Shown: piece after piece, positions 2,156 through 20,000 of the stretch | Numbering within the stretch: position 1 is the first letter of the stretch | Layout of the letters: every line of letters begins with the position of its first letter | Position numbers and translations under genes: made by a program | Notes under the pieces: generated by a model | The model's input: only the letters and a program-made list of their open reading frames with translations | Database searches by the model: none | What the model was told of the DNA's origin: nothing | From: Chiloscyllium plagiosum | Taxonomy: Eukaryota | Direction of reading: 5' to 3' | Assembly (NCBI RefSeq): GCF_004010195.1 | Contig: NC_057749.1 | Location: 13,885,759 to 13,905,758 of the forward strand | Length of the DNA: 20,000 nt

Positions 2156-2675
2156 GTACAACCCATGGACAAAACCAACGTCATCTACAAAATTCCATGC
2201 AAGGACTGCCACAAACACTACGTAGGACAAACTCAAGAAAGTTAGCCACCAAGATACACGAACACCAGCTAGCCACAAAAAGACATGTCCCTCTCTCCCT
2301 CGTAGCCCTACACACGGATGAAAAAAACCCACCATTTTGACTGGGACAACACATCTATCCTGGGACAGGCTAAGCAAAGACATGCCAGAGAATTCCTACA
2401 GGCCTGGCACTCCAACCACAACACCATAAACAAACACAGAGATCTAGATACCATCAATCAACCCCACAGAAAACGAACAGGAAATGACATCACCACAAAC
2501 CCTGGGATCCCCATCCAGGACCAACATATAAATAGAAAACATTTCACTTGGAGGTTGCCACTGATGATGTTACCTAGCCAGGTAATGAAACGTCTGGATA
2601 TCAAACCTACAGGTCAGCGAGCAAATCTACATCCTAAACCTCAACTTGAGATACAAACCTTCACAAACCTTGCAA
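2156..2675 (+). mobile_element. 5'-truncated Penelope-like element (Poseidon-like): GIY-YIG endonuclease C-terminus plus 3' terminal repeat
   Basis: Frameshifted translation PMDKTNVIYKIPCKDCHKHYVGQT-RKLATKIHEHQLATKRH...HHFDWDNTSILGQAKQRHAREFLQAWHS. VIY...YVG is the GIY-YIG signature with a CxxC motif. Paralogous to 19700-20000. Confidence 0.9.
2552..2608 (+). ncRNA. Minimal type-I hammerhead ribozyme motif in PLE 3' repeat (core intact)
   Basis: CCA(2558-60) CTGATGA(2561-67) T GTTACC-tagcca-GGTAAT(2569-86) GAAA(2587-90) CGTC(2591-94) TGG(2595-97). Helix I may extend through AGGTT(2552-56)/AACCT(2604-08). Confidence 0.75.
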
Positions 2676-3080
2676 AAATCACTTTAATAGTTATATAAGT
2701 GTTGGTCATTAATGCTCTCAAGCCACCTTAAAGATCTAACGGTTTTGATTCAGACTGGTCCAACTGCAATATTTTGTTACAGTTTTGATGCCAGTCTTTA
2801 AATATCCCAATGTAATGAAATGTATATCACTTCTATTTTGAGCAAAATTTTCCAAAAATAAGTATGCCAGACACATTTCTCTTATCCTGTCCTTCAGGGC
2901 ATTTCTCTCCACTAAGGACAGCTGTTCCATGGCATGAACAAAATGGGATGATCCATCTTAGCCACCTCCGAAGGTTCCCTAAGTTAGAAGTATCAGCCAA
3001 TTTTATTTACTACATGCAATATCAAAGAAATAGATGCAGAAAAATATGAGCTTTTGCAATACGTTTTATTATTAAAGAAA

Positions 3081-3790
3081 GGATGTGGGCATTGGAGCGC
3101 TTGCTGCCCATAACCTAATTGCCCTTGAATAGGTGGTGGTGAACCACTTTTTTAAGATTAGATTAGATTCCCTACAGTTTGGAAACAGGCCCTTTGGCCC
3201 ATTAAATCCACAGTGACCCTCCGAAGAGTAACCCACCCAGACCCATTCCCCGACTCTATATTTACCCCTGACTAATGTACCCAACACTTTGGGCAAATTA
3301 GCATGGTCAATTCACATCTTTGAATTGTGGGAGGAAACTGAAGCACCCAAAGGAAACCCACGCAGACACGGGGAGAATGTGCAAACTTCACACAGACAGT
3401 CATCCCGAAGTGGGAATCGAACCCAGGTCCCTGGCGCTGTGAGGCAGCAGTGCTAACCACTGAGCCACCGTGACGCCCCCTTCTCGAATCGCTGCAGTTC
3501 ATGTGATGCACCACACCCACAGTACTGTTGAGAAGAAATTTCCATGAATAGATTCAGCAGCAGTGAAGGAACAGCAAGTTCCAAATCTGGATAGTGTATG
3601 GTTTGCCAGGGAACTTGAAGGTGGTGGTGTTTGCATGTATCTGTTGCCCTTGTCCTTCGACATGGTAGAGGTTGCAAGCTTGGAAGGTGCTGCTGAGGGA
3701 GCCTTGATGAATTACTGTAGTGCACCTTGCAGATGGTACACATTAATGCCACCATACCTCTGTGGTGGCAGGGGTGAATGTTTGAATGAT
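3081..3790 (-). mobile_element. CR1/L2-group LINE 3' portion, interrupted by a SINE at ~3154-3478
   Basis: ORF 3453..3755 (-) 'VALMCTICKVHYSNSSRLPQQHLPSLQPLPCRRTRA' resembles the 'HRRTVAAVCTIYKMHCSNSPRLL.QHLP' C-terminus of this LINE type. The sequence 'gtggtggtgaacc' / 'ccttctcgaatcgctgcag' resumes across the SINE. Confidence 0.7.
3154..3478 (-). mobile_element. HE1-like tRNA-derived V-SINE, near full length
   Basis: On the minus strand: A box TGGCTCAGTGG (3467-3457), B box GGTTCGATTCC (3423-3413), V-domain 'gtttgcacattctccccgtgtctgcgtgggtttcc', and a CR1-like tail 'gggccaaagggcctgtttcc...(aatct)n'. Confidence 0.9.
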
Positions 3791-4114
3791 AGAATCATAG
3801 AATCCTTCCAGCGTGGAAGCAGGCCATTCAGCCCACAAAGATCCACCAACTCTCCAAAGAGCATCCCACCCAGACCCATGCCCCCTACCATACCCTATAA
3901 CCTTCCATTCTCCATGGCTAATCCACCAAGCCTGGGCACTATGGGCAATCCACCTAATCTGCACATCGTTGGATTGTGGCAGGAAATTGGAGCAGCCGGT
4001 GGAAACCCAGCAGACATGGGGAGAATGTCTCTGTGGAGTTTGCACAGTCACCCAAGGGTGGAATCGAACCCAGGTCCCTGGTGCTGTAAGGCAGCAGTGC
4101 TAACCACTGAACTA
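3789..4114 (-). mobile_element. HE1-like V-SINE, second and more diverged copy with an internal micro-inversion
   Basis: Aligns to 3154-3478: 'ggaatcgaacccaggtccctggtgctgtaaggcagcagtgctaaccactga' head and 'atagaatcatagaatcc' tail. Confidence 0.88.
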
Positions 4115-4971
4115 CTTACTTGTTTGACATAGAAAGCAAAGCCAGCAAGCCAATCTTCTTTTTAATCTGCATCTCCCTCCCAGTGCAAGAACAGGATAGC
4201 TACAATCTTGAGAACCGTCAATTTAAAAAAATGGTCAGAGTGGAAATATCAATCATTTCTTTATCCTCCCTAGAAATTAAAGAATCATTGGGAACAATCA
4301 CCTCCCAAATCCTGCAAACTGGGCACAGGAGCTCATATCCTTGAAAATGTCAGGTTGCAGAAATTGGCAATATGGTATCTGATTTGACAGTCCAGTTGGA
4401 TCTTCCATCCTGCTGTGACAGTGAGGTTTACAACAGTGATTTAGTAACGGGCAGAGACTGCAGACTCCATTTACTGGATAAAGGCTTTCTGCTTCATTGC
4501 AAGGTATTGACCAGTTGGTGCTATTCTACTGGTGTGTGGACACTTCCTCAGGAACGTTTTTAGCAAGTTACATTTAGCAGACCCAAATTAAACTTAGCCA
4601 GGCTTAGGTGTGTACAATGGATTGAAAAGGTCAATAGAAAAAAACATTCTAAGCCACTGACTGTGAGAGAGACAATGGTCATTCTGATCACCAGTCACTC
4701 TCAGCCAAACTCCATTCTAATATCGCAAAATTTGTTTATTCCTGTACTCCAATCCCTTTGCAATAAAGGCCTCCATGCCATTTACCTTCACCATTGTTGC
4801 ATGAACCTATGGGATATCTATGTTCCTTATATGAGTGCACCCTCTGTACATCACATCATTTAAAACATATTCTGCTTTTCTATCTTTCATGCCAAAGAGA
4901 CAAATGTCTGTTTCCCATCATACTCTATCTGCCATCACACTGCCCCTCACCCCTAATTAACGTAACCAGAC

Positions 4972-5785
4972 AGATGGGGTATCAATCAAGTAGGCTGCTT
5001 TATCCCTCATGCTGTCAAGCTTCTGGAGTATTTTTGGAGTTGCCCTTAACCAGGCAGCAGAAAGTATTCCATTATTCTGATTTATGCCTGGAAGGTGGGC
5101 AGACTTTGGGGAGTAAGGGTTAGTTGTTCGCCACTAAAAATTTCAGCCTCTTAACCATTTTTGTACACACAGTACTTGTAAGCTGGTACGGTTCATTTTC
5201 TAGTCAATGGTAAACCTCAGGATGTTGACAGTTCAGACTCCAGTGATGGCGACATCACTCAATATCAAGAGACATGGTCAGATTTACTTTTGTTAAAGAT
5301 CATCATTAACTGGCACTGGTATGGCATGACGGCTACTTGTCACTCACCAGCTCCGGTATGACGGTATCCAGACGTTCAGACATATTGGCATGGCCATTTC
5401 AGAATCTAACATGTCACAAATGGTGTGAAATATTGCACAATCATCAAACATTCCCACTTCTGACTTTATGATGGATGGCAGGTTGTTGATGAAGTAGCTA
5501 AAGATGATTGGGTTTTGGAACAATAACTCCTGCAATGATGTCCTGTGGCTGAGATAACTGACCACCAACAAACATTTTTATGATTCCAAAATGGAAAGTT
5601 TTGCCTGATATGCAGTTACTTCAATTTTGCTAGGGCTCCTTTAAGACACACAGTTAAATGCTGCCTGTCTTTATGTTAATAGCAGTCATCATTTTCACCT
5701 CACCTCTTTTATCCATATTAGGACCAAAGCTGTAATGAGATCAGAGGCATAGTGGCCCTGGGAGAACCCAAACTGAATACTGTTG
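4972..5785 (-). mobile_element. Decayed CR1/L2-group LINE reverse-transcriptase region
   Basis: ORF 5344..5571 (-) 'PIIFSYFINNLPSIIKSEVGMFDDCAIF' is a degenerate RT 'P.IF..FINDLP.......FADD'. Downstream on the minus strand is 'LQKLDSMRDKAAYLIDTPS'. Confidence 0.75.
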
Positions 5786-5789
5786 AGCT

Positions 5790-6048
5790 CCACCATCTTA
5801 CTTGGTTGAATGAGTCTTCAACAACACTCAAGAAACTAAATATCACTAAAGGCAAATCAGCTCAATTGATTGATATCCCATCCATCACCAACACACAACA
5901 GTGGCAATTATGTACATTTACAAAATGCATTGCAATGTCTGCTACTTAGAAGGCCAAGGGCAGACATACATGAATACCACTGCAACTTCCCCTACAACCC
6001 TCATATAATTCAATTTTGGAATAATATCACCAAAATTTCACTGTTGCT
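5790..6048 (+). mobile_element. Same LINE family, opposite-orientation 3' fragment
   Basis: 'TWLNESSTTLKKLNITKGKSAQLIDIPS' and 'tgtacatttacaaaatgcattgc' (CTIYKMHC-like). Homologous to 4972-5060 (-) and 3560-3790 (-). Confidence 0.65.
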
Positions 6049-6050
6049 TT

Positions 6051-6145
6051 GTTCCTGATGAAGGGCTTTTGCCCGAAACATTGATTTTCCTGCTCCTTGG
6101 ACACTGCCTGACCAGCTATGCTTTTCCAGCACCACACTCTTGACT
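6051..6145 (+). mobile_element. Solo PLE terminal-repeat fragment starting at a hammerhead motif
   Basis: CTGATGA(6055-61) A GGGC-tttt-GCCC(6063-74) GAAA(6075-78) CATTG, then 'cctgctccttggacactgcctgaccagctatgcttttccagcaccacactcttgact', shared with 6731-6850 and 16175-16336. Confidence 0.8.
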
Positions 6146-6423
6146 ATAACTTTCTTTGTCCTATTATGACAAACAGCTAAAACAAAAAGTCCTCTAGAGA
6201 ACTGTGGCAAGACTGCATAAGATTAATGAGCAAATCCAATAATCATGACTACTAATATGATGGAAAAATTATAAATCTAAACATATTTGTAAGTTATAGT
6301 ATTGATTAATGTACTTTCAATCAATACTAATTTCTTGGAGAACTGCTAAATACATGTTTCATCACTCCCTGTTAACAAAGTAAAATATTCACATCACAAC
6401 ACTTTAACACTGTAAAATTAATC

Positions 6424-6862
6424 CCCTCCACCTCCAAATCAAAGTCACCCAACAACTGGAGGAAGAACACCTCATCTTCCACCTCAGGACCCTACAACCA
6501 CACGGCATCAACAAAGACTTCACCAGTTTCCAAATCTCCTTACCCTCCCCACCTCATCCCAGATTCAACACTCCAACTCGGCACCACCCTCTTGACCTGA
6601 CCTACCTGTCCATCTTCCTTCCCAGCTATCTGCTCCACCCTCCCCACCAACCTATCACAATCACCTCCTACCTGGATCCACCTGTCGCCAACCCACCTAC
6701 CTTTCCCTCAGCCACCCTTCCCCCACCCCATTCCTGATGAAGGGTTTATGCCCAAAACATCGACTCTCCTGCTCCTCGGATGCCAATTTACCTGCTGTGT
6801 TTTTTCCAGCACCAAGCTTTTCAACTCTGACTCTCCAGCATCTGCAGTGCTCACTTTCACCC
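6424..6862 (+). mobile_element. PLE 3' fragment: endonuclease C-terminus, C-rich 3' region, decayed hammerhead
   Basis: Translation LEEEHLIFHLRTLQPHGINKDFTSF matches the PLE GIY-YIG C-terminal 'E..LIF.LGTL.P.G.N' motif. Hammerhead remnant CTGATGA(6734-40) A GGGT-ttat-GCCC AAAA CATCG. Confidence 0.85.
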
Positions 6863-7289
6863 TTTAGTATAGCCTGTTTCAGAGTGGCCAGAGTACACAG
6901 TCACACTTCCAGTGTGTGACGGATTGCACAATGCTGACTGCAGTGCAAAAAACAGTTACTGTACATTCATTTCTGTACATGGATTCCTGATGCAGCAGCT
7001 GAAGTAGTCACATTGCTCACCTGCATGGGTGAGCTGAGCACTTAGTCAAACAGCAGATGGGGGAAACAAAAAATCAAAAGCAGCCTCAGTTGAGCAGCAT
7101 TCCTATTTTGCTTTTTGTTTTGAATATACTAGAACCCACCAAAACCACAGGTTTCATCAGCAGCAAATTAGAAACAAATTCACCCAGTATAGACAGAATT
7201 AAACAATTGCATTTACATAGTGACTTTCACATATTCACGACCTCCTTAAACACTTTACAGACAAATGAATTATTTTTGTATTGACAACA

Positions 7290-7578
7290 ATAGTCATAAC
7301 TTTGCATCGCAAGATCTCAGACATTAAACAGCTTCTTGCGAAGCTTGTTGGGGGATAATGACCCTCGGGCTTAATACAAGGGCTTCCTACTCTTATCAAA
7401 AGATGCTATGGAATCTTTTACTTTGGCAAGTAGTTGGAGCCTGAGTTTAGCATGACATCTTCAAAAGAGCAACAAAATTCCTCTGCCTTGCGAACGTAGT
7501 CAAATGTTCATGTCCTGGAACACTGCTTGAACCTACAACTCTCTGAAACAAGAGCATTTCCAGTGAGTCAAGTTGACA
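7290..7578 (-). mobile_element. Old DeuSINE (SacSINE1-like) remnant
   Basis: 'tgctatggaatctttta', 'gcctgagtttagcatgacatcttcaaaag' and 'cttgaacctacaactctctga' resemble the reverse complement of the Deu domain and tRNA head as I recall the consensus. Confidence 0.55.
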
Positions 7579-9260
7579 TTTTACACTCCAATGAATGCAT
7601 TCACACAATGTTACAGTTGCGAGAAAAATCTTCTGCTTCCAATTAATGTTTTGCACATGCACACCGATTGGTTTTCCTGTGAGGGTTCCAAGTTAGCAAG
7701 GTCTGAGGAATGGCATTCTTTTGCTTAACCTTGGCTTTCAGCAAGCTTCTTCCATCCCCAGCTGCTCTCACTCCTTTAAACAGTGTTGAGAGCTAAAACT
7801 GAACGAAGAACATCACATTTCAGCACCTTTAAGTAATCATAAAACAAACTTTATTATGACTCTAAAAGTAAATATGCAAATACTTTCCCCAAGAATGCAC
7901 AAGGAAAAGAAATCATTCTCCAATTATCCACTGAATCATTCTTTAACATGTAGAGAAATTCCATGCTGATTAGCTGCAACCTTGCAGTCTCGTAGTATTT
8001 GATTCAGCTCCATGTTATCTGCTCCAATCAGAGCAGTTCCAAGCACCAGTAACCTGAAGCTTGTTTAGTGAACAAGGGAACACAAACAACACAAGCAGCC
8101 GGAGTGGCCCCCGTACTCGCTGGTGCGCATCTTTCCCCTTGCAGCGATGAAGGCCATTTTGTCAAGCAGGAGAGACTGGAACAAAAGTGGCTCTGAAAAC
8201 ACTGTTATGGACAGGCAGATAACAAAGTATAGATGTACAGCTAAAATTACCAATTAGTTTACCAATTGGCTGCAACGGATTCGATTGGTTTGTAATTAAT
8301 TCTAGTTTCTGGCGCATACAGCAGGACGGTTGGCGCCAACCCTTTGTCCTGCTGACACACAATACCAGTACACAAGACCCAAGGGTCCTGGACATCAATA
8401 CCTCTCTCTGCCTCACCTACAGCAGCCAATGCAGAAAATATATCCTGATGTGCTGAAACAGTGAAAAGTTCTGCTGCATGAGAAGGCGCTGACAAGAAAG
8501 AAGTCTTTATGGGCTAAGCTGTGTAACAGCAAGCTTCATGCTAAAATAAACTCCACTGGATTGTCGGACAGGTTGTCTGGTGTATGAAGGGGATTTATTT
8601 TCTGAAGGTCATGCCTGCCACACAGAAGCAACACTGAAATACAACTTTCAGACAAATTATCATCCACCGGTGCGTTCTTTTACTGAGAAAATTGATCATC
8701 CTTTTCATTTCTTTCACTGGAAATGTACTGTGACTACAGCAAACAGCAGATTCATTCATTACAAAATGTACAGGATACATAACACACACCAAACTTGTCT
8801 TGAGATGGTCCAATGCAAATACTAATGCAATTTACAAAGAAAGTGAGAGTTGTAAAAGCACATTTGCTTTGACAAGCACAACTTCGCAACAAGACAAGAT
8901 AATTGATTAGCGCTTTTCTTTCTGTTTCCGGATCAAAGAGAGCTAATTTGAGGGGGTCACGTGTTATTCTTCATAGCAAAGAACAACTGCAAAGGTTCAC
9001 TTTATCAGATTATAATTTCCACTTTTCTGAAAGGGAACTTTAATTAAAGTCATAGAATTTTCAGTGGACAATTTTTTTTTCATCCTTTGTTTACATCATG
9101 TGTTTTTTTTGAAAAATCTCAGATATGAGATATTTACAGAATATTATATTTAATGTTTCTTTGATTTCCCATTGCATTTTTGTGACATTCAACCTATGTT
9201 GATGTTTACTCTCCACACATGTCCTAAGCTCATTTCCTGTTCAATTCTTAAAACCCTTTT

Positions 9261-9288
9261 AGGCTGAATGGCCTCCTCCTGTTCTATA
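9261..9288 (+). repeat. Tiny CR1-type 3' tail remnant
   Basis: 'aggctgaatggcctcctcctgttctata' resembles the CR1 terminal hairpin and tail. Confidence 0.4.
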
Positions 9289-10731
9289 TCGAATTTTCCC
9301 ACTGTACATTTTCATTCAGCCATCTTTTAAGTTAAGTTCTTTCCACTGTCTACTGAAGATCTGACACTTTTCATTATTTCTCAGTTAACCATTTAGTTCA
9401 TCTCACATTCTCGTGTAAGCCAGTTCTCTTTTCTCACCAATACCAAATGTATCTGTTGAAAAAGAGAGCTATAATAATTACAGATATTTATTTAGCATTT
9501 ACTGGTTTCGTGTATTCAGGCAAAATCTTGGAAATATAGTCTAAAGACTATTATAATATTGAAAGAAATATTTAAAGTATACCATCAAAGAAAAAGCCTA
9601 GAACAATAAGATAAATGTTTCTTTATTTCTTATTTTTTCATCTCTGGTGAGACATAGCATGTCAAATGCAATGCTCTCTGAACAGGTAGTTCACTGAGTG
9701 AACTATCACTCCAGCCCAGGCGATACCTAACAGAGAATAGTGCTCAGGTAGTAGCCTCTACTTCTGAGTCTGTCTTCCAATCCCATTTGGGGTGTTGCAC
9801 CATGTTTTATAGCCAATAGCCAGATTGAACATAAAATGTGAATGAGCAAATGACTGTGCATTGAAGTAATTAAAATTTCATCATCTTTTATATTCAGTCA
9901 ACTCTGGTTATTTTAATCCTGAGCAATTGAGCAGGACTACATAAACTTCCTAAATGCAGTGAAGCTCAGCCTTCGCCTTAGGCAAAAACTGCGGTTCAAT
10001 CGTTTCATCTTCATGCCAAAGAAGATAGGATATTGAAGTGTGCAGCTTACACAGTGAGCGTTCAGCTGTAGGTTTTGTCAGGAGTCCGGAAGCCTGATGA
10101 AAATTAAAAGGAATAAACAAATTGGCACTGTGATGACAGCTTTACTATGTAACAATCCAAGAGATTCACATTGAAGCCAACAGACTTTAACATTGTGGAA
10201 TGCATCATCTCAAATTGCTGGCATCATCACTGATGGGCTGAAGTACTAATGGTTACATCCTAAATGTAAGGCAATTCAAAGTGCTGCTCCAGGCACAAGA
10301 CAGGTTTAGAATGTCAAAAAAAAGGTATAATATATGAATATTTTACACAATTCAAGTGGACACAGAAAAAGTTCACAGATGAAGTACTAAATTTTAGGAA
10401 AAAGAATAGGAAAAAATGCTGCAAGGTAGTTTCACAATTGTAGGTTTTAAATGAATATTCATGACAACGTTGTTAACACATCAGTCACATAAATCATCTG
10501 TCTCTATCTCATCAAATATTATCCCAAAAGATAGCCTTTAGCCAGAAGAAAGATTTCAAATGTTACAACAGCACTGGTAGGATGATATAAAATTTTCAAC
10601 CAGAAGATCAAAGTTTGAAGTTGACTTGACTGTACTGCTTCTGAGACAGAGTTAGGGTTCAAAGCAGACACTTGCTAACCAAAATTAATGGGATAGTTAG
10701 AGAGAGATTTCGTCAAAGGACATTTTCTTCA

Positions 10732-12740
10732 GGCTGATGTCATGAGGATCAGTAAATCCTTCTATGCCAGTCTGTATGACGCGAAGCCGACCGACAGCAC
10801 GGCCTCCCAGTCGTTCCTGTCCTCTATCACGGAGGTCTTAGACGACAGAACACGGGAGAGGCTGGACCAGCCGCTATCTCTGGATGAGCTGACCAAGGCC
10901 CTAGAGTCCTTCGAAAAGAATAAAACTCCCGGAAGCGACGGCTGACCGGTCGAGCTCTATTCCGCTCTGTGGGACTTGATTGGCCAGGACCTGCTGGAGG
11001 TGTATGTCAGTATGCTTCGGGCAAGTACCATGAGTGAATCCATGAGGAAAGACATCATCACCCTCATCTACAAGCGGAAGAGGGAAAGGGAGGACCGCAA
11101 AAATTGGAGACCAATCTCACTGTTAAACACAGACTACAAAATCTTGTCAAAGGTCATCGCCAACCGGGTCAGGTCTGCTCTAGGGTCGGTGATTCACCCT
11201 GACCAAACCTGTGCGGTGCCGGGCAGGAAGAACGCTGAGAGTCTCTCACTCCACAGGGATACAATCGCCTACGTGCAGGACAGAGGGTTGGACACCTGCC
11301 TGATCAGCCTGGACCAAGAGAAAGCCTTTGACAGGATATCACACACATATATGAGAGATGTTCTCTCCAAAATGGGCTTTGGGGAGGGAATCTGCAATTG
11401 GATCAGACTGCTCTACACCAACATTGTCAGTGCAGTCTCAATCAACGGGTGGGAATGCTGGGGCGTGCGCCAAGTCTTGGGAGGAGCGTATCAGCAAAGT
11501 GAGGCAGAAACTGGGCAGATGGAAGCTATGGTCGCTCTCCATCGCGGGAAAAAACCTGGTCATCAGGTGTGAGGCACTGTCATTGCTATTATACGTGGCA
11601 CAGGTCTGGCCTATTCCCAGAACCTGTGCCGCTGCAGTCACCCGGGCCATCTTCCAGTTTATATGGAGGTCAAAGATGGACCGAGTCCAAAGGGACTCGC
11701 TGTTCAAAGATCTGGGCAACGGGGAAAAAATACACCCAATGCCACCCTCACCCTGATGGCCACCTTTGCGTGGATGTGCGTGGGTCCCCGGTACGCAAAC
11801 ACCAAGTGTCACTACGTACTGAGGTTCTACCTGTCCCCGGTGTTGCGAAGGATGGGCCTGGCCTCGCTGCCGCGGAACACTCCGAGTAGTTGGACCGTTC
11901 CGTATCACTTGTCCTTCGTGGAGAAGTTTATGAAGAAACTTTGACCACAAGTCCATCAGGAAGTGGTCAGCACGTAGTGTCCTTGAGACCCTTCAGGAAA
12001 AGGAGAGGGCGGATCCTATCAAGCGGTTCCCTGAGCAGACTGTCAAAGCCATTTGGCAGAATGCCTCATCGCCAGAACTTTCCAACAAGCACCAAGACAT
12101 GGCTTGGCTGGTGGTGGCCTGTGAGATCCTTTATGCACGCTGCCCTTGAAGCAGCTGCGGGGGGGACGAGACTGTCACACACCTCCTTCTGGAATGTGCC
12201 GACACAGAAGTCGTCTGGAGAGGAATGCAGTGGTGTTTGTCGAGGTTCGTCCCGAGCAGCGCCGTGACGCAGGCTCCGTGCTCTATGGCCTGTTCCCCGA
12301 GACGCAAATCGAGACGAACATCAACTGTGCCTGGAGGATCATCAACTCGGTGAAGGACACACTCTGGGCGGTCCGAAACCTGTTGATCTTCCAGCTGAAG
12401 GAGTTGACCCCGACTGAGTGTTGCAGACTGGCATATTCCAAGGTCCAGGACTACATGTTGAGGGACGCGCTGAAGCTTGGGGCAGCTGCCGCCAAGGCGC
12501 GGTGGGGAAAGACCACCGTGTAATATCTGCCTGCCTTTAAGAAGAACAGGTGGCCCGCGCACTCATTTGGGCCCTGCTGATGCCTCAGCTAAAAATGCAA
12601 TTGTACAGACCTGCAAATAGGAATGATTACTCTGTTTTCGGTATGCAAACAAATGGAATGTTTACATATGTATGGCATGTCCAGTTGTACAGATCATCAA
12701 AGTATTTTATGAATAAAGTATATTTTTGAAATAAAAAAAA
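10732..12740 (+). mobile_element. Tx1-clade (L1 group) non-LTR retrotransposon, 5'-truncated, internally deleted, with poly(A) and candidate TSD
   Basis: GC/CpG-rich block. ORF2 motifs KTPGSDG*P.ELY, ITLIYK...KNWRPISLLNTDYKILSKVIANR, IHPDQTCAVPGR and SLDQEKAFDRISH; C-terminal zinc knuckle RCP*SSCGGDETVTHLLLEC; stop at 12521-23; AATAAA at 12712-17; A-tail to 12740. Flanking acattttcttca (10720-31) and acattctcttca (12742-53). Confidence 0.92.
10742..12523 (+). pseudogene. Disrupted Tx1 ORF2 (RT N-terminal half plus C-terminal CCHC region)
   Basis: In-frame TGA at 10943-45 separates two same-frame ORFs. A deletion/frameshift at ~11455 (VSINGWE joined to GACAKSWEERI) removes the QG and YADD RT motifs. 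Further frameshifts occur downstream. Confidence 0.88.
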
Positions 12741-12973
12741 TACATTCTCTTCATTCCCAACCGCAGCTAAACAGCAAAGCGTGTTGGCAGGACCACAAGC
12801 TTTAAACCTTTTAAAACTAAGGATCTGAGCTTCAGCTGTTATTTAAATTACTTAAGAAGTTCTTTTTAACAAATAAAATTCAAGAAAATCCCATTTAACA
12901 ATTCAGCCTCATATTTAACTTAATCAATAAATGCTGCCTTCTTATTATAGAGTACTAGGTAAAAACTAGAGTA

Positions 12974-13304
12974 TAAGAGGTGTACAAGATGATCAGAGGA
13001 ATAGATAGAGTAGACAGTCAGAAACTTTTTCCCCGGGTACAACAGAGTGTTACAAGGGGACATAAATTTAAGGTGAAGGGTGGAAGGTAGAGGGGAGATG
13101 TCAGGGGTGGGTTCTATACCCAGAGAGTGGTGGGGGCATGGAATGCACTGCCCGTGGGAGTGGTGGAGTCGGAATCATTGGCGACCTTTAAGCGGCATTT
13201 GGATAGATACATGGATGGGTACTTAATCTAGGTTAGAAGTTCGGCACAACATCGTGGGCCGAAGGGCCTGTTCTGTGCTGTATTGTTCTATGTTCTATGT
13301 TCTA
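12974..13304 (+). mobile_element. CR1 LINE 3' end, short 5'-truncated insertion
   Basis: EVYKMIRGIDRVDSQKLFP...TRGHKFKVKGGR*RGDVRGGFYTQRVVGAWNALP...LATFKRHLDRYMD, followed by 'gggccgaagggcc' and (TGTTCTA)x3. Candidate TSD ctagagta at 12966-73 and 13302-09. Confidence 0.92.
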
Positions 13305-13516
13305 GAGTACTGCAGAAAATGCATTCAAAGCAATTTCATTCTGTTCAGCTTTTATTAAAAGTACATGATACATTATTCTATATCTTGTGACTGTACAGAT
13401 GTATAGTTCCAATACTTGAAACTAACCTGTGACTTGGAGGAATACTTTAAAGTTTACACTTCTGTCCTTTTCTTGGACATTTTACTTTCCCGCTCCAAAC
13501 TGATTTGTTGATGGTA

Positions 13517-14703
13517 TACATAGAGTCATAGAGATGTACAGCACGGAAACAGACCCTTTGGTCCAACCCGTCCATGCCGACCAGATATCCCAACCCAATC
13601 TAATCCCACCTGCCAGCACCAGGCCCATATCCCTCCAAACCCTTCCTATTCATATACCCATCCAAATGCCTCTTAAATGTTTCAATTGTACCAGCCTCCA
13701 CCACATCCTCTGGCAGCTCATTCCATACACGTAACACCCTATGCGAGAAAAAGTTGCCCCTTAGGTCTCTTTTATATCCTTACCCTCTCACCCTAAACCT
13801 ATGCCCTCTAGTTCTGGACTCCCCGACCTCAGGGAAAAGACTTTGCCTATTTACCCTAGCCATGCCCCTCATAATTTTGTAAACCTCTATAAGGTCACCC
13901 CTCAGCCTCCGACGCTCCAGGGAAAACAGCCCCAGCCTGTGCAGCCTCTCCCTGTAGCTCAGATCCNNNNNNNNNNNNNNNNNNNNNNNNNNNNNNNNNN
14001 NNNNNNNNNNNNNNNNNNNNNNNNNNNNNNNNNNNNNNNNNNNNNNNNNNNNNNNNNNNNNNNNNNNNNNNNNNNNNNNNNNNNNNNNNNNNNNNNNNNN
14101 NNNNNNNNNNNNNNNNNNNNNNNNNNNNNNNNNNNNNNNNNNNNNNNNNNNNNNNNNNNNNNNNNNNNNNNNNNNNNNNNNNNNNNNNNNNNNNNNNNNN
14201 NNNNNNNNNNNNNNNNNNNNNNNNNNNNNNNNNNNNNNNNNNNNNNNNNNNNNNNNNNNNNNNNNNNNNNNNNNNNNNNNNNNNNNNNNNNNNNNNNNNN
14301 NNNNNNNCCTCCAGTCTAAAAAACAACCCTCCATCACCACCCTCTGTCTTCTACCTTTGAGCCAGTTCTATATCCAAATGGCTAGTTCTTCCTGTATTCC
14401 ATGAGCTCTAACCTTGCTAATCAGTCTCCAATGGGGAACCTTACTGAAGTCCATATAGATCATATCTAAGGCTCTGCCCTCATCAATCTTCTTTGTTGCT
14501 TCTTCAAAAAACTCAATCAAGTTTGTGAGACATGATTTCCCACATACAAAGCCATGTTGACTATCCCGAATCAGTCCTTGCCTTTCCAAATACATGTACA
14601 TCCTGTCCCTCAGAATTCCCTCCAACAACTTGCCCACCACCGAGGTCAGGCTCACCGGTCTATAGTTCCCTGGCTTGTCTTTACCGCCCTTCTTAAACAA
14701 TGG
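13517..14703 (-). mobile_element. CR1 (HER1-like) LINE, 5'-truncated, spanning the assembly gap
   Basis: Minus-strand FKKGGKDKPGNYRPVSLTSVVGKLLE...QHGFVCGKSCLTNLIEFFEE...YMDFSK, and after the gap LSYRERLHRLGLFSLERRRLRGDLIEVYKIMRG...TRGHRFRVRG. Tail 'ctctatgactctatg'. Confidence 0.95.
13967..14307. other. Assembly gap (341 N)
   Basis: Run of N within the CR1 copy. Confidence 1.
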
Positions 14704-16144
14704 CTACAGCAAACGATAGAATAACAACACTTATAATACGCATCATTCCTTATTGCTCAATATATAGATGTAATAGCCAAGAGTAGGAAGGAAACTGTTA
14801 GCAACTTAAAAGGCCTGTTTAACATCGCATGTAATTGCTACCACACTGTGTGTTTCGGCAAAATCTAGCTCCATGAAAGGAACTGTTCTACTTCCCGAAA
14901 AGCTACTATTGTAATTTATTATCAGACCCATTAGCCAGACGTATCAAGCTATTTGCAGTTTAAATACATGAATTTTGAGCTATTAACTGCTGTTGCATAT
15001 CCTAAGGCACTGTCTCTAGCTCGGAACGATAAAGCAGAAAAAAAAGCTGATCTTCTTATATGGCTAACAGTCCATAAACTAACCACAATTTTTGCATCCA
15101 CACTTGCAACCTAAACCAGGTAGTAGAGCCCCTGTCAACTAAGCACATGACATTATACGGATTGTCAGAATTACACTGCAATCAATTACTGTAGAAGCAT
15201 ATAAAAGGATTATTGTCACAATTCAGATTATTTTCAAATCCTTGAAGTAGTTTTATATTCTATAACAAAATATCATATCCCAGTTGAGCTTAAATGATGT
15301 CCATTAATGATTCAAATTGTCGTTTCACAGCATTTGTGCCATGGAAAATTTTATCGGTTGATTCAGACTCTGATTGGCCAAGCCGTGAATGCTCCATCAA
15401 TAGGGGGTTGGAAAACATGTCCTTCATCAGGCATGTGTATTCCACTAGATATCAACACAGAACTGAGTGAAAGACCTCCTGTTACAGCTCACTACAAATC
15501 TGTAATGCCGGCTTTGGACTCTCCATTTTCTGTCACAGAGACAAGCTAATCAAATGGCGCGTTCCATTCTAGAGAGTTAATGCCATTTAATATTGGACTT
15601 CTGTAACAGTCAATAAGACTGAAACAACACATTTCTCCACATGCAACATAGCGAAAGTGAAATTAAAGTCTATACATATGGCAGGAGAACCTTTTTCTAT
15701 AGTAATAACCAACATATTACTCATGCATGCTCAAACATGACAACTGTATTTCAGTTAATACTTCCTGCTTTGGATTTAATAATTCATTCCAGTTAGTCAA
15801 CAACAACACTGACAGTACAGGGTGTCGTCAGAGATTTAGGGCTGCATTTCTGAAAATCATAATTTTAAGTGAAATAACTTTAAATGAAGCATAGTTTTCC
15901 ATACTAAAACCAAATGTTAGGCTCCTAAGGAAATTTTTATTCAAAAAAGTCAATGGAAAAGTTGAAATATTGCACTTTCATGTACAGTGCCGTGCATTCC
16001 TTGCAAAAATACTTGCAAACAAAACAAGGAAAGCTTCAGAGAAGAAACCAGACACCTTGCTTGCAAAGCAGTCTTTCGAGAGGTTTGCCATACAATGCAG
16101 GTTCCTCAACTATTGTATCTGTATGAGTATAGTACAGTACAGGA

Positions 16145-16337
16145 GAAAATGAGGACTGCAAATGCTGGAAATCAGAGTCAAAAAGTGTGGTGCTGGAAAA
16201 GCACAGCTGGTCAGGCAGCATCCGAGGAGCAGGAGAGTCGACATTGTAAGCATAAGCTTTTCATCCTGATTCAGCTCCCCTGCTCCTCGGATGCTGCATG
16301 ACCAGTTATGCTTTTCCAGCATCACACTTTTGACTCC
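16145..16337. repeat. Fold-back pair of PLE terminal-repeat fragments (~59-bp inverted arms)
   Basis: Arm 16175-16233 'gagtcaaaaagtgtggtgctggaaaagcacagctggtcaggcagcatccgaggagcagg' and arm 16279-16336 'cctgctcctcggatgctgcatgaccagttatgcttttccagcatcacacttttgactc'. Same family as 6051-6145. Confidence 0.85.
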
Positions 16338-16617
16338 AAAGTGCAGTACAGATTATTTTTTAAAAACTAATTCCACGATCATTCCTTTACTAGTAATGAT
16401 ACGAGCAGCAGAGAAATTCAAAACAAAGATTAAAAAACAAAATTTACATCAGTACTTGAGCAGCGAATTGTTAAAGATAACAATGATCTTTGACTGTAAG
16501 GGCAGTCACATTGGCACCAACCAATCATGTGATGACACAACTCGTATGACACTAGTGTCGCAGCAACATGAAATGCACAACTATGCCAGATACAACCAGA
16601 AAATCAGGGAGTGAGCA

Positions 16618-17080
16618 TCCTGCTTACATGCCCACATGTCAGTTCTCGGCATACTGCAGCGTTCCAGTGAATCTCAATGCAAACTGGAGAAACAACATCT
16701 CATCTTCAGACTAGGCACTTTCTAGCCTTCTGTAATTAATATTGAATTCAACACCTTTAAATTGTGAACCATTTCTTTCCTTACTTTTAGCTTGTTATCA
16801 TGTCCTCCCCTTCCCCCATCACACTTACTCTCCTTTCGAGTCAGGCAGGAGACACACCATTGTTTGGCTATTATCACATTCCCATCACTTTATCCGAACT
16901 ACCAAAATCTTTTCTCCACCTACTACTCCCATCCCACCTCCCACACAACTATAACATAAATGCTGCCCCTCCACACTTCACTTCAGCTCTGAAGATGAGT
17001 CATCTCGGCTCGAATATTAGCTTGTCCTTTCTCCATGGATGTTGTCTGACCCACTGTAATCACCAGCATTTGTTGTTTTT
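16618..17080 (+). mobile_element. PLE 3' fragment with decayed hammerhead
   Basis: HMSVLGILQRSSESQCKLEKQHLIFRLGTF*PSVINIEFNTF. Hammerhead remnant AGCT CTGAAGA(16989-95) T GAGTC-atctc-GGCTC(16997-17011) GAATATT AGCT. Confidence 0.82.
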
Positions 17081-17608
17081 AACAGAAAAACAGAAATTGC
17101 TGGAAAGGCTCAGCAGGTCTTGTAGCATCTGTGGAAAGAAGTCAGAGTTAACTTTTCAGGTTCATTCAGAACTGATCGTAGCTAGGAAAAAGTTGGCTTT
17201 TATGTAGAAGATAAGGTGGGGGGGGGGGGGTGAAAAGGTAAATGATAGGCAGAGATCGCCCAGAGACAAGCCCAAAGAGAGAGATTTGGACTGACAAAGG
17301 AGTGGATAACAATCAGTTTGGAAGAATAAACAGCTATTAGTGGACAATGCAGTAGCTAATGATGGGTGTTGTGTAATGGCAGACCATGTGATAACAAGGC
17401 CTGGTGTGTGGGAGTTGAGTATGGGAATGGGAGAAAGTGCCTCAAACCCTAAAATTGTTGAATTCGGTATTGAGTCCAGAAGTCTGTAGAGTTCCCAAAC
17501 AGAAAATGAGGTATTGTTCTTTCAGTTTGTGCTGAGCTTCACTGGAGCACTGCAGCAAACCTGAAACAGAGATATTAGCCAGGGAACACGATGATGTGCT
17601 GACGTGGC
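17081..17608 (-). mobile_element. PLE 3' fragment, same family as 18585-19070; hammerhead partly deleted
   Basis: Reverse complement reads ANISVSGLLQCSSEAQHKLKEQYLIFCLGTLQTSGLNTEFNNF. The terminal 'tcagttctgaatgaacctgaaaagttaactct' (17175-17144) lacks the 5' strand of stem II. Confidence 0.85.
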
Positions 17609-17904
17609 TTACATCCCTTACTTCCTGTCCTTTTTATAGACAGGAAGTAAGGGATGTTAAAACAGGGAATGGCAATTTAAATGAGGGTGGGGCACATGAA
17701 AGAAAACATTAAAGCAGAAGAAAACTTTGAAAGGGGAGACAGCAAACAAGGACTCCAATATAATGTGATGAGCAAACCAGCAGATTTTACATTTCATCCC
17801 TTCAGAAACGTTATTCCAATATTAATAATAAATTTAATAAACAACGCCATTTCCAGCTATCCACTCATGTTTGTAAGTGATCAGCATTGAAAAAGAAAAA
17901 GAAC

Positions 17905-18060
17905 ATAACCATCTAGCCTGTTATCACAATTTTCCAAAGAGCTTTAGGCACCAATTAATTACTTTTGAAAAAGTCTGAGTCTTTAAGTAAACATACTAGC
18001 CAATTTCCACACAGTAATATCGCATTAACAGAAATGAATGACTGGTTCAATTGCATTTTT
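17905..18060 (-). mobile_element. DeuSINE-like 3' remnant
   Basis: 'ccaaagagctttaggcaccaattaattacttttgaa' and 'agccaatttccacacag' resemble the reverse complement of the SacSINE1/AmnSINE1-like 3' portion, from recall. Confidence 0.5.
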
Positions 18061-18065
18061 TAATT

Positions 18066-19070
18066 AAAACCCAAAAGAACTGTGGATGTTGGAAAGCAGA
18101 GACAAAAACAGAAATTGCTAGAAAAGCTCAGCAGGTCTGATCACATCTGTGGGGCCTAGTTACCATCATCCCTGAACCAGAACGTTAACTCTGAATACTC
18201 TCCACAGATCCTACCAATGACCTGCTCAACTTTTCCAGCAATTTCTGTTTTTGTTTCTGATTTCTAGCATCCGCAGTTCTTTCCATTCTTGTTTAGTGTT
18301 TAATTCACTGCCACATATCTTCCAGGTATGCCCACCTTGAGGAAGTTCTGTTCCTCTCTCTGGAAGGATCTCCATTCCAATCTTTTCTCTTGTCCACTTT
18401 CATTAATTTCACTGTCACTCCTGGTGTTTGACAAGGTACTTGCTAAAACTTGTTTCCACACCACATCACATTCCTCAGTGACTGCCTCCGGCTCAGACTC
18501 TCACCATGAGGATCCCAACTCAAGAATCATCCTTCATATTTTGAATCCACCCAGGTCCATAGATATCTCAGTGATGTTCAACTGCCACTTCAATGCACCA
18601 TCGTGTTCTCTGGCCAACATCTATGTCTCAGGCTTGCTGCAGTGCTCCAGCATAGAAGTGCACCTCATTTTCTGCTTGGGAACTCTTCAACCTTCTGACT
18701 CAATATGGAGTTCAACAATTTTAGGGCTTGAGGCACCCTCTCGCATGCCCTTAAACCAACCCCCACACACTAGGCCTTGTTAACATATGGTCTGGTATTA
18801 TACACAACTCATTGTTAGCCACTAACAATCCCCATTAGTAGCTATTCATTCTCCTAGGCTAATAATTTGTCTGTCCAACTGTTCTCTCTCTTTGGGCTCT
18901 AACTCCACCTATTGTTTACTCCTTATCCCCACCCCAACCCTATCTTCTGCATTAGAAAAACAACTTTTTCCTGGCTGTGATCAGTTCTGAGGAAAGGTCA
19001 CTGAGCCTGAAACGTTAATTCTGATTTATCTCCAGAGGTGCCACCAGACCTGCTAAACTTTTCCAGCAAT
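18066..19070 (+). mobile_element. Internally deleted, non-autonomous PLE retaining inverted partial repeat, 5' repeat, ORF start, EN C-terminus and 3' repeat with hammerhead
   Basis: Inverted arms 18074-18152 and 18202-18282. ATG at 18328, then VFDKVLAKT.FH and (after a frameshift) HITFLSDCLRLRLSP*GSQL, a PLE N-terminal FLxxCLxxxLxPxG-like motif. This jumps to CHFNAPSCSLANIYVSGLLQCS...HLIFCLGTLQPS (EN end). The 3' repeat at 19010-19070 matches 18180-18242. Confidence 0.8.
18981..19024 (+). ncRNA. Minimal type-I hammerhead ribozyme motif (core intact)
   Basis: AGTT(18983-86) CTGAGGA(18987-93) A AGGT-cactga-GCCT(18995-19008) GAAA(19009-12) CGTT(19013-16) AATT(19017-20). Confidence 0.7.
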
Positions 19071-19111: not shown

Positions 19112-20000
19112 CAGACAATTATGTAGAGACTAGAACGAACAGCCCTCCCCACAATCAACCCAAGCTTTGTGTCTGCTCTGTGGATGACAGCTTTGTCATC
19201 ATGAAACGTTTCAAATTAGAAGAAACCTACAATATCATTAACATCCTTACTGGCATAAATTTCACCAAAGAGGAACACAACAACTCCAGACTTCCCTTCC
19301 TAGATGCCACAGTGGAACAAACAGTCAACTGCAGACCAGCGTCGATAGAAAAGCAACACACACAGACCAGATACTCAACTACGGGAGCAATCGTCCCAAC
19401 AGCCACAAACAGAGCTGCATCAGGACATTATTTAAACGGGCCACAACACGCTGCAGCACCCAAGAGCTATGAGAAGAAAAGTACCGATACAACAACATTA
19501 TCAAGAACAACGGGTACCCAATAAGCACAGTCCATTGATTCTTAAACAACAAACCCAAACAAGAAGACACAACATGCCCACAGACTCTAGCCAAACTACC
19601 GTACATCAAAGACATCTCGGAGATAACAACCAACTACCCCGACCCCTTGGCATCATGGTAGCTCACAAACCTACCAACACACGGAAACAGCTACTAATGA
19701 GCTGAAAGGATCCTGTACCAACAGCCAGCAAAACAAATGTCATATACAAAACACCCTGCAAGGGCTGCAACAAACACTAGATCGGACAGAAAGGTAGGAA
19801 ACTAGCCACCAGGATACATGAGCACCAACTAGCTACCAAAAAACATGACCAACTATCACTAGCATCCTTACAGACAGACAAAGAAGGACACCACTTTGAC
19901 AGGGACAAAACATCCATCCTAGGACACACATGGGAATTCCTCGAGGCCAGGCATTCAAACCCGAACTCCATCAATAAATACATTGATTTGGACCCCATAT
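19112..20000 (+). mobile_element. Penelope-like element (Poseidon-like) RT C-terminus plus GIY-YIG endonuclease, decayed, running off the window
   Basis: VDDSFVI (YVDD motif decayed), INFTKEEHNNSRLPFLD, TSVDRKATHTDQILNY.SN.P.SHKQSCIRTLFKRA, LPYIKDISE and KTNVIYKTPCKGCNKH*IGQKGRKLATRIHEHQLATKKH. Confidence 0.92.

Follow-up and report, generated by a model that had tools for sequence, protein, structure and literature searches.

The 20,000-nt stretch of contig NC_057749.1 analyzed here (hereafter, the window) belongs to the 3.56-Gb genome assembly of the cartilaginous fish Chiloscyllium plagiosum. It contained six full hammerhead ribozyme motifs and two remnants, all of which were read directly at the positions reported in an initial annotation of the same DNA. 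These motifs are very probably relics of the 3'-terminal segments of Penelope-like elements (PLEs) that carried the minimal type-I hammerhead of PLE pseudo-long terminal repeats (pseudo-LTRs). Every hammerhead site fell within a repeat that has relatives elsewhere in the genome, and the motifs were located in truncated retroelement copies, at a distance of about 75-125 nt from their 3' ends; the copies represent four families, designated A-D, in agreement with the several families initially proposed (BLAST against natural copies from the same genome; Table 1). The motif class is real and of a known kind that was described in 2014 (Cervera and De la Pena, 2014; PMC4209133), and its copy number in this host is notable. 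The new elements are a count across the whole genome, statistics on CpG decay and on compensation, the presence of two 3' ends, and a tally of head-to-head pairs.

The 5' box of the hammerhead core (C3-U4-G5-A6-N7-G8-A9) was exact at five of the eight sites (2561, 6055, 6734, 16989, and 18987), mutated at 16259(-) and 17144-75(-), and missing at 18170-94. The 3' box (G12-A13-A14, A15.1, and U16.1-H17) was fully intact at two sites (2561 and 18987) and was destroyed at 16259, 16989, 17144, and 18170; it is intact in the main genomic variant of each family. Helix II directly closed both boxes in all six full motifs, with four to seven closing pairs, and a closing stem of at least 4 bp was present in 45 of 71 distinct box-only candidates from the window and 89 loci. 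A single unpaired nucleotide was found between A9 and position 10.1 in six of six full motifs (T, A, A, A, T, and A), as the initial annotation had stated. At the 10.1-11.1 pair, families A and D had G-C, family B had G.U, and the family C copy of the window had A-U; across the 25 distinct rows of an alignment described below (A1), the pair was GC in 12, GU in 10, and AU in three. Helix III was absent, and families A-D contained the self-complementary 15.1-16.1 tetranucleotide ACGT. Direct reading of helix I gave 3 bp, an internal loop, and 4 bp in family B, and 4 bp in family C.

Apart from the 10.1-11.1 pair, which varies between families, the window motifs match the listed traits of the minimal hammerheads of metazoan PLEs (PMC4209133). 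Those motifs consist of two boxes with stem II directly between them, lack helix III, and carry a palindromic 15.1-16.1 tetranucleotide; because they have only a palindrome instead of helix III, two copies must pair. They also contain a conserved extra base between 9 and 10.1 and mostly G-C at 10.1-11.1. Each genome harbored several consensus families with compensatory changes, mostly as solitary truncated copies and partly as opposite-strand pairs (PMC4209133). Since the extra base is within the published consensus, the extra nucleotide of the window motifs is already known. Family A differs from the Schistosoma families in having a stem II of 4 bp and a helix I of two contiguous pairs, compared with 7-8 bp and 4-5 bp, respectively (PMC4209133). 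The suggestion that the motifs are uncatalogued was sound with respect to Rfam models and the searchable literature, but not with respect to the class itself, which was published together with its extra base. No shark is named in the main text of PMC4209133, and a full-text literature search found no publication linking hammerhead ribozymes with sharks or cartilaginous fish. One chondrichthyan was sampled for tandem retrozymes, according to the available part of a 2026 preprint (Li et al., 10.64898/2026.07.22.740005).

It is extremely improbable that AT-rich repeat DNA produced the motifs by chance, as matches to a degenerate short pattern (the window has a G+C content of 42%). The bare word CTGANGA was indeed not enriched in the window, with 17 occurrences compared with 12.0 +/- 3.6 expected. 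On the other hand, a strict descriptor (CTGANGA, 0 or 1 nt, a stem of at least 4 bp, and GAAA(C)) returned four matches, compared with 0.004-0.08 expected from dinucleotide shuffles, and none of 500 shuffles reached four; the initial annotation had named a count equal to the shuffled expectation as evidence against its own claim. Three of the four matches are sites that it had named. The fourth, CTGAGGA-A-TGTG/TGTG-GAAAC at 18444-18478 (-), was rejected as a ninth motif and is probably a chance match, given its all-G.U stem, the lack of ACGT, and the lack of homology to any family. All of the named sites belong to motif-sharing repeat families, and the genome-wide counts also far exceeded their controls.

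The pattern CTGANGA-N(10-22)-GAAACGTC matched 137,805 times genome-wide, compared with 430 matches for the pattern read backwards. The corresponding patterns ending in GAAACGTW and GAAAGNTH matched 30,445 times (1,072 in controls) and 65,909 times (7,885 in controls; mostly family E, described below), respectively. The box-intact total was ~234,000 compared with ~9,400 in controls, or ~225,000 net, which corresponds to ~63 per Mb or ~1 per 16 kb; these values rest on whole-genome pattern counts and their listings, are lower bounds, and do not include a check of stem II, although most of the listed rows show one. The two box-intact copies in the 20-kb window are thus an unexceptional load for the host genome. 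By family, 124,920 copies were within two mismatches of the 30-nt motif of family A (control, 0), 6,165 were within three mismatches of the main variant of family B (control, 0), 486 were within three mismatches of the family C variant of the window, and 62 copies of its family D variant were found. A fifth family, E, was detected in the genome but not in the window; its motif reads CTGATGA-A-GGAGC-N3-GCTCC-GAAAGCTA (e.g., L063:84-112 and L049:2148-2176), the dimer palindrome AGCT replaces ACGT, and the cleavage triplet is CTA. Many family E copies occur in head-to-head pairs ~10 nt apart.

The large genomic reservoir proposed initially was therefore confirmed by the genome-wide scan. For comparison, ~4,000 minimal motifs have been reported in coelacanth and ~9,000 in Xenopus (PMC4209133). 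The portion of PMC7229834 (Cervera and de la Pena, 2020) that is available gives 126,247 canonical type-I hammerhead motifs for axolotl; with the genome size of 28.2 Gb given in the available part of 10.64898/2026.07.22.740005, the motif density in C. plagiosum is ~15x that of axolotl. Because six of the eight window copies appear to be dead, the term "ribozyme reservoir" would mean a reservoir of ribozyme motifs.

Stem II differs between the families, with GGGC/GCCC in A, GTTACCT/AGGTAAT in B, GGGTC/GACCY in C, GAGTC/GACTC in D, and GGAGC/GCTCC in E. The covariation of this stem that had been read from the window was borne out between families and in one compensated sublineage of family A. 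In alignment A1, which contains 26 natural copies picked by the author from 54 distinct PLE-like box-only candidates, 92% of the cells in the four closing pairs were paired, compared with 69.8 +/- 2.9% in shuffles, none of 500 of which reached this value. All four closing pairs varied on both sides, doubly changed cells numbered 23 compared with 5.3 +/- 2.5 in shuffles, and slid controls gave 15-58% paired; a shift by one column in the 16989 row and in the two rows of family E lowers the pairing. MAFFT left-justified a second alignment (A2), for which the sequences had been trimmed at GAAA, and this alignment was unusable. Shuffling the spacer of each family representative produced a stem as long as that observed in 0.1-5% of trials. 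The support from between-family covariation is solid but shallow.

Within family A, 1,815 copies had A at stem position 2, and the partner was changed to T in 20 of the 100 matches listed, compared with a background of 3/89 in the author's tally (Fisher p = 6e-4). Among the 18 copies with GAGC/GCTC, 12 have exactly the same sequence, which marks them as a single amplified lineage. A further 1,806 copies had A at stem position 3, where the partner was changed in none of the 100 matches listed, which indicates that pairing is not maintained after insertion. Compensation is seen only where the source lineage carried it. The helix III palindrome covaries as well, and G at 15.2 was accompanied by C at 16.2 in 85 of the 100 matches listed, as in the AGCT of family E.

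The link to PLEs is most direct in family B, in which the region upstream of the hammerhead is coding. The open reading frame (ORF) of one family B locus reaches Pfam RVT_1 (30.4 bits, compared with a cutoff of 29.6), and a 216-aa ORF ending ~100 nt before the motif matches proteins of carpet sharks and other animals that carry RVT_1 and, at the C-terminus, a GIY-YIG-like stretch. In the window, the fragment at 2156..2683 is 86-90% identical to six family B loci (BLAST), and a 705-aa homolog with RVT_1 and a weak GIY-YIG is matched over its residues 651-702 by the ORF at 2306-2698 (E=7e-20). Sequence similarity thus supports family B as a PLE, tied to a predicted reverse transcriptase (RT)/GIY-YIG-like ORF, whereas families A, C, and D are putatively assigned to PLEs by structural hallmarks only (the motif, two 3' ends, and frequent inverted partners). 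The PLE identity given in the initial annotation can therefore be upheld through a protein for family B, but the protein link failed for the other three. A peptide-like motif, HLIF-x-LGTLQP...N..F, is common to 6470-6540, 16690-16760, and 18660-18730 (+), where it precedes a hammerhead (of family A, D, and C, respectively) on the same strand by 264-323 nt. The shared motif suggests a conserved coding end in the source elements of these families.

Several observations weigh against the assignment of the window motifs to PLE hammerheads. The upstream regions of families A, C, and D had no protein match: a Pfam scan of four upstream ORFs from these families returned nothing, BLASTP against a PLE-type homolog reached E=0.07 only, and a database search with the 18547-18783 frame had no match. 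The GIY-YIG matches linked to family B score 17-18 bits, under the Pfam cutoff of 22.6, although they are correctly placed in three proteins. The rows of alignment A1 were hand-chosen and represent only about five independent lineages, and compensation within family A was confined to a single lineage. Direct reading gives helix I of family A only two contiguous bp, and its 5' strand is missing from the short units. Single-sequence folding of five solitary motifs was no better than that of shuffles (z from +0.2 to -0.8), and no Rfam hammerhead model of any type matched the window at the gathering score or at E values up to 10; a 121-nt stretch around an intact copy likewise gave no Rfam hammerhead match. 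The Rfam hammerhead families are Hammerhead_1, Hammerhead_3, Hammerhead_II, HH9, and HH10. They have the catalytic core in common with the window motifs, yet the models miss the window copies.

The shapes of the copies also point to PLEs. Among 30 copies of family A, the 3' end was at +89 to +104 in 10, at +125 to +133 in 19, and at +120 in one; among 30 copies of family B, it was at +72 to +87 in 16 and at +103 to +120 in 13; and the 3' ends of family C likewise formed two groups. In the Poseidon element PAc of Anolis carolinensis, reverse transcription is initiated internally and the hammerhead is assisted by protein (Frangieh et al., 2024; PMC11167929). PAc shares with the present families a hammerhead ~110-120 nt upstream of the 3' end of the insertion and two alternative ends that are ~35 nt apart, known as the "tail" (PMC11167929). 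The two 3' ends observed here match the PLE tail, with its ends 30-40 bp apart, and the two internal RT start sites of PAc. A further likeness to PAc, the ORF of which begins at stem II, is found in family B: a frame opened by the ATG within CTGATGA continues through the tail and has 45 codons in the copy of the window. The corresponding frame of family A, read from genomic copies, closes after 17 codons, unlike that of PAc.

At the 5' side, 13 of 30 family A copies were solo copies that begin 2-11 nt before CTGANGA, and another six were fold-backs joined there; a start within ~14 nt of CTGANGA was found in 16 of 27 family C copies compared with two of 30 family B copies. Most family A and C copies thus start exactly at the motif, unlike the elements described in PMC4209133. 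This sharp limit at the first box of the ribozyme differs from the cleavage site; an RNA 5' end at the first box, or a protein block on the template, is a possible source of it. Inverted copies are also frequent. Of the inverted pairs in the window, two are tight and head-to-head and one is wide, and tight head-to-head family A pairs (at most 30 nt between motifs) occur at at least 10,873 genomic sites (control, 0). The pair at 16140..16336 is inverted repeat I7 (57 nt, 91% complementary), with a folding energy of z = -4.1 that reflects the fold-back, and the pair at 18065..18283 is inverted repeat I2 (64 nt, 88% complementary).

The hammerhead-headed starts, 19 of 30 in family A with solo copies and fold-backs combined, would also be expected if the short family A and C units formed a separate non-autonomous lineage, retrozyme- or SINE-like (short interspersed nuclear element-like), with its own transcription and a PLE enzyme acting in trans, and were not dead-on-arrival by-products. 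Several solo units bear target-site duplications of 8-15 bp, and the available part of the preprint of Li et al. argues that animal retrozymes derive from PLE pseudo-LTRs. Non-LTR retrozymes, as far as the accessible text of PMC7229834 describes them, form tandem units of 150-450 bp with a short real helix III and circular RNAs. From these partial sources (PMC7229834; 10.64898/2026.07.22.740005), the likeness lies in type-I hammerheads that require a dimer, the relation to PLE pseudo-LTRs, and very high copy numbers. In contrast, the motifs studied here lack helix III, Tandem Repeats Finder detected no tandem arrays in the window, and head-to-tail family A pairs at a start-to-start spacing of 104-134 nt, the only spacing considered, numbered 323 genome-wide compared with the 10,873 head-to-head sites. 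The scarcity of head-to-tail pairs and the lack of tandem repeats in the window argue against retrozyme-type arrays. Moreover, the short and long copies of a young sub-type have one tail variant in common, as if from a single source. A separate lineage of short units is therefore improbable, and the preferred reading is that they are truncated copies of PLEs.

The target-site duplications, read directly at the short family A units of loci L001, L002, L009, L011, and L018, overlap the first motif bases (CCTG), an overlap suggestive of microhomology at the 5' junction. At several loci (e.g., G000:C1:93358047-93358226 and C4:4348045-4348224), minisatellite-like arrays have a 28-nt unit that combines 12 nt from the start of the family A hammerhead with 16 nt of its upstream sequence. 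In the window, an inverted repeat of 20 perfectly matched bp around a 9-nt loop (17610-17658) directly adjoins the family C copy of the minus strand at its 5' end and may be a snap-back joint of insertion.

From these features and published work, the following scheme may be proposed. In the RNA of the source element, two copies of the motif would pair through the palindromic ACGU and form helix III. The paired motifs would cut after GUC or GUU, weakly alone and better with the protein of the element, and cutting would process read-through or multimeric transcripts, as the published systems lead one to expect. Cleavage by the PAc hammerhead was dispensable for insertion in vitro (PMC11167929). 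New copies would be generated by target-primed reverse transcription from either of two internal sites, which lie downstream of the motif by roughly 75-125 nt and are separated by ~35 nt. Synthesis that ends early or folds back would generate 5'-truncated copies, hammerhead-headed short units, and head-to-head pairs. The inserted copies would be inert and would decay neutrally, fastest at methylated CpG.

A bolder proposal combines two parts and is rather unlikely as a whole. It holds that this genome has the densest hammerhead-motif load of any reported genome (~225,000 compared with 126,247 in the ~8x larger axolotl genome, as far as the available sources go). It also holds that the template RNA has its 5' end at the hammerhead, through transcription start or processing, and that internal RT starts 90/125 nt downstream and runs off or snaps back, so that a ribozyme-headed mini-retroposon would be the main product.

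Decay after insertion could be followed in the first 100 listed of the 155,830 family A copies that are exact at the non-CpG positions of the motif. All three CpGs were kept in 54 of these copies and at least one was mutated in 46; the first was lost in 18, the second in 28, and the third in 20 (~9-14% per CpG base). At two non-CpG positions of the family A stem, each was changed in ~1.2-1.5% of copies, relative to a denominator of ~89% of 137,805. Post-insertion decay is neutral and ~tenfold faster at CpG, and the initial annotation was correct in placing it largely at these sites; the CpG observed/expected ratio of the window is 0.32. In the window, two of two differences of copy 6055 from the commonest genomic variants, and two of three of copy 6734, are CpG transitions. 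Copy 6055 kept GAAA and lost both the ACGT palindrome and the cleavage triplet through its two CpG transitions, and G12 is changed to A in copy 6734, which renders the core dead. The motif at 16259-16248 (-), with the stem AAGC/GCTT, is heavily mutated (box 1, CAGGATGA; box 2, ACAAT). The remnant at 17144-17175 (-) is homologous to the 18987 copy, with stem II deleted and the 5' box mutated, and the remnant at 18170-18194 (+) retains only the 3' half of an 18987-type hammerhead, followed by the tail.

Overall, six of the eight window copies have lost a core base, a box, stem II, the palindrome, or half of the motif. The remaining two are complete: copy 2561 is identical letter for letter to the commonest family B genomic variant, and copy 18987 (CTGAGGA-A-AGGT/GCCT-GAAACGTT) has both boxes intact, A-U at 10.1-11.1, and the triplet GTT. 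Their completeness on paper, together with the conserved intronic hammerheads of amniotes that are mentioned in the available parts of reviews, could be taken as a sign that the host adopted some motifs as working ribozymes that process host transcripts. Such an adoption is very unlikely, since the families concerned number 10^2 to 10^5 members and decay neutrally, and copy 2561 is simply identical to a young family B variant. Judged from their sequences, the window copies appear to be inert relics, with 2561 (family B) and 18987 (family C) complete on paper.

Table 1. Hammerhead-bearing and related PLE features of the window (positions are those of the 20,000-nt stretch).
Feature	Position	Strand	Description
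Family B PLE 3' fragment	2156..2683	+	C-terminal end of the endonuclease-side ORF, then hammerhead, then tail
Family B minimal hammerhead	2561..2594	+	CTGATGA-T, stem II GTTACC(T)/(A)GGTAAT (7 bp), GAAACGTC; every core base kept
Family A short unit	6052..6145	+	Starts at the hammerhead 6055-6084, stops at the short-form 3' end (BLAST)
Family A hammerhead	6055-6084	+	CTGATGA-A-GGGC/GCCC-GAAACATT
Family A longer fragment	6456..6862	+	~280 nt upstream of the hammerhead; long-form 3' end (BLAST)
Family A hammerhead	6734-6763	+	CTGATGA-A-GGGT/GCCC-AAAACATC
Family A head-to-head inverted pair	16140..16336	-/+	Minus arm 16140-16265 (with the heavily mutated hammerhead); plus arm 16276-16336 (tail only); BLAST
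Family D fragment	16681..17080	+	Left limit approximate, set by the conserved peptide motif alone
Family D hammerhead remnant	16989-17018	+	CTGAAGA-T-GAGTC/GGCTC; box 1 and 5-bp stem II kept, box 2 destroyed (GAAT)
Family C fragment	17081..17608	-	Inverted relative to the 18582-19070 copy; inverted repeats I3, I4, I6, I8, I9, and I11; BLAST
Family C head-to-head inverted pair	18065..18283	-/+	Minus arm 18065-18152 (tail only); plus arm 18169-18283; BLAST
Family C fragment	18582..19070	+	Hammerhead 18987-19016 (BLAST)
Decayed ORF of family-B-like Penelope element	19121..20000	+	End of the RT region into the GIY-YIG-like part; continues past the window end

Two of the fragments in Table 1 were further matched to genomic copies. 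The family D fragment is 78% identical to the family D copy in locus L063 over 16934-17040, and the decayed ORF at 19121..20000 shares ~70% identity with the coding region of family B loci. The window also contains other repeats. Two copies of one repeat, 88% alike and ~647 nt apart, occupy 3404-3468 / 4051-4115 and 3216-3251 / 3849-3884; the minus strand of this repeat looks tRNA-derived, with a GGTTCGATTCC-like arm, and the repeat is probably a SINE. ARAGORN called no tRNA in these repeat copies and none in the whole window. Fragments of a reverse transcriptase of the long interspersed nuclear element type were found at 10946-12560 (+; RVT_1, E=5e-17) and at 13780-14703 (-; RVT_1, E=1.2e-7), the latter spanning a run of N at 13967-14307. 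Weak Rfam microRNA and small nucleolar RNA rows in the window were hairpin-derived and far under their cutoffs, and the inverted repeat at 17610-17658 was the source of the microRNA-like ones.

The present results leave the knowledge of how hammerheads or PLEs work unchanged, and add one cartilaginous fish to the hosts of PLE minimal hammerheads. In such a genome, PLE hammerheads can rank among the commonest recognizable RNA motifs and are nevertheless invisible to standard Rfam scans. The annotation of ribozymes and small structured RNAs in sharks needs a dedicated descriptor, nearly all matches of which are to be expected to be dead retroelement ends. This huge and mostly neutral set of copies could serve as a natural mutation-accumulation series, and could help in mapping where PLE reverse transcription starts and stops.

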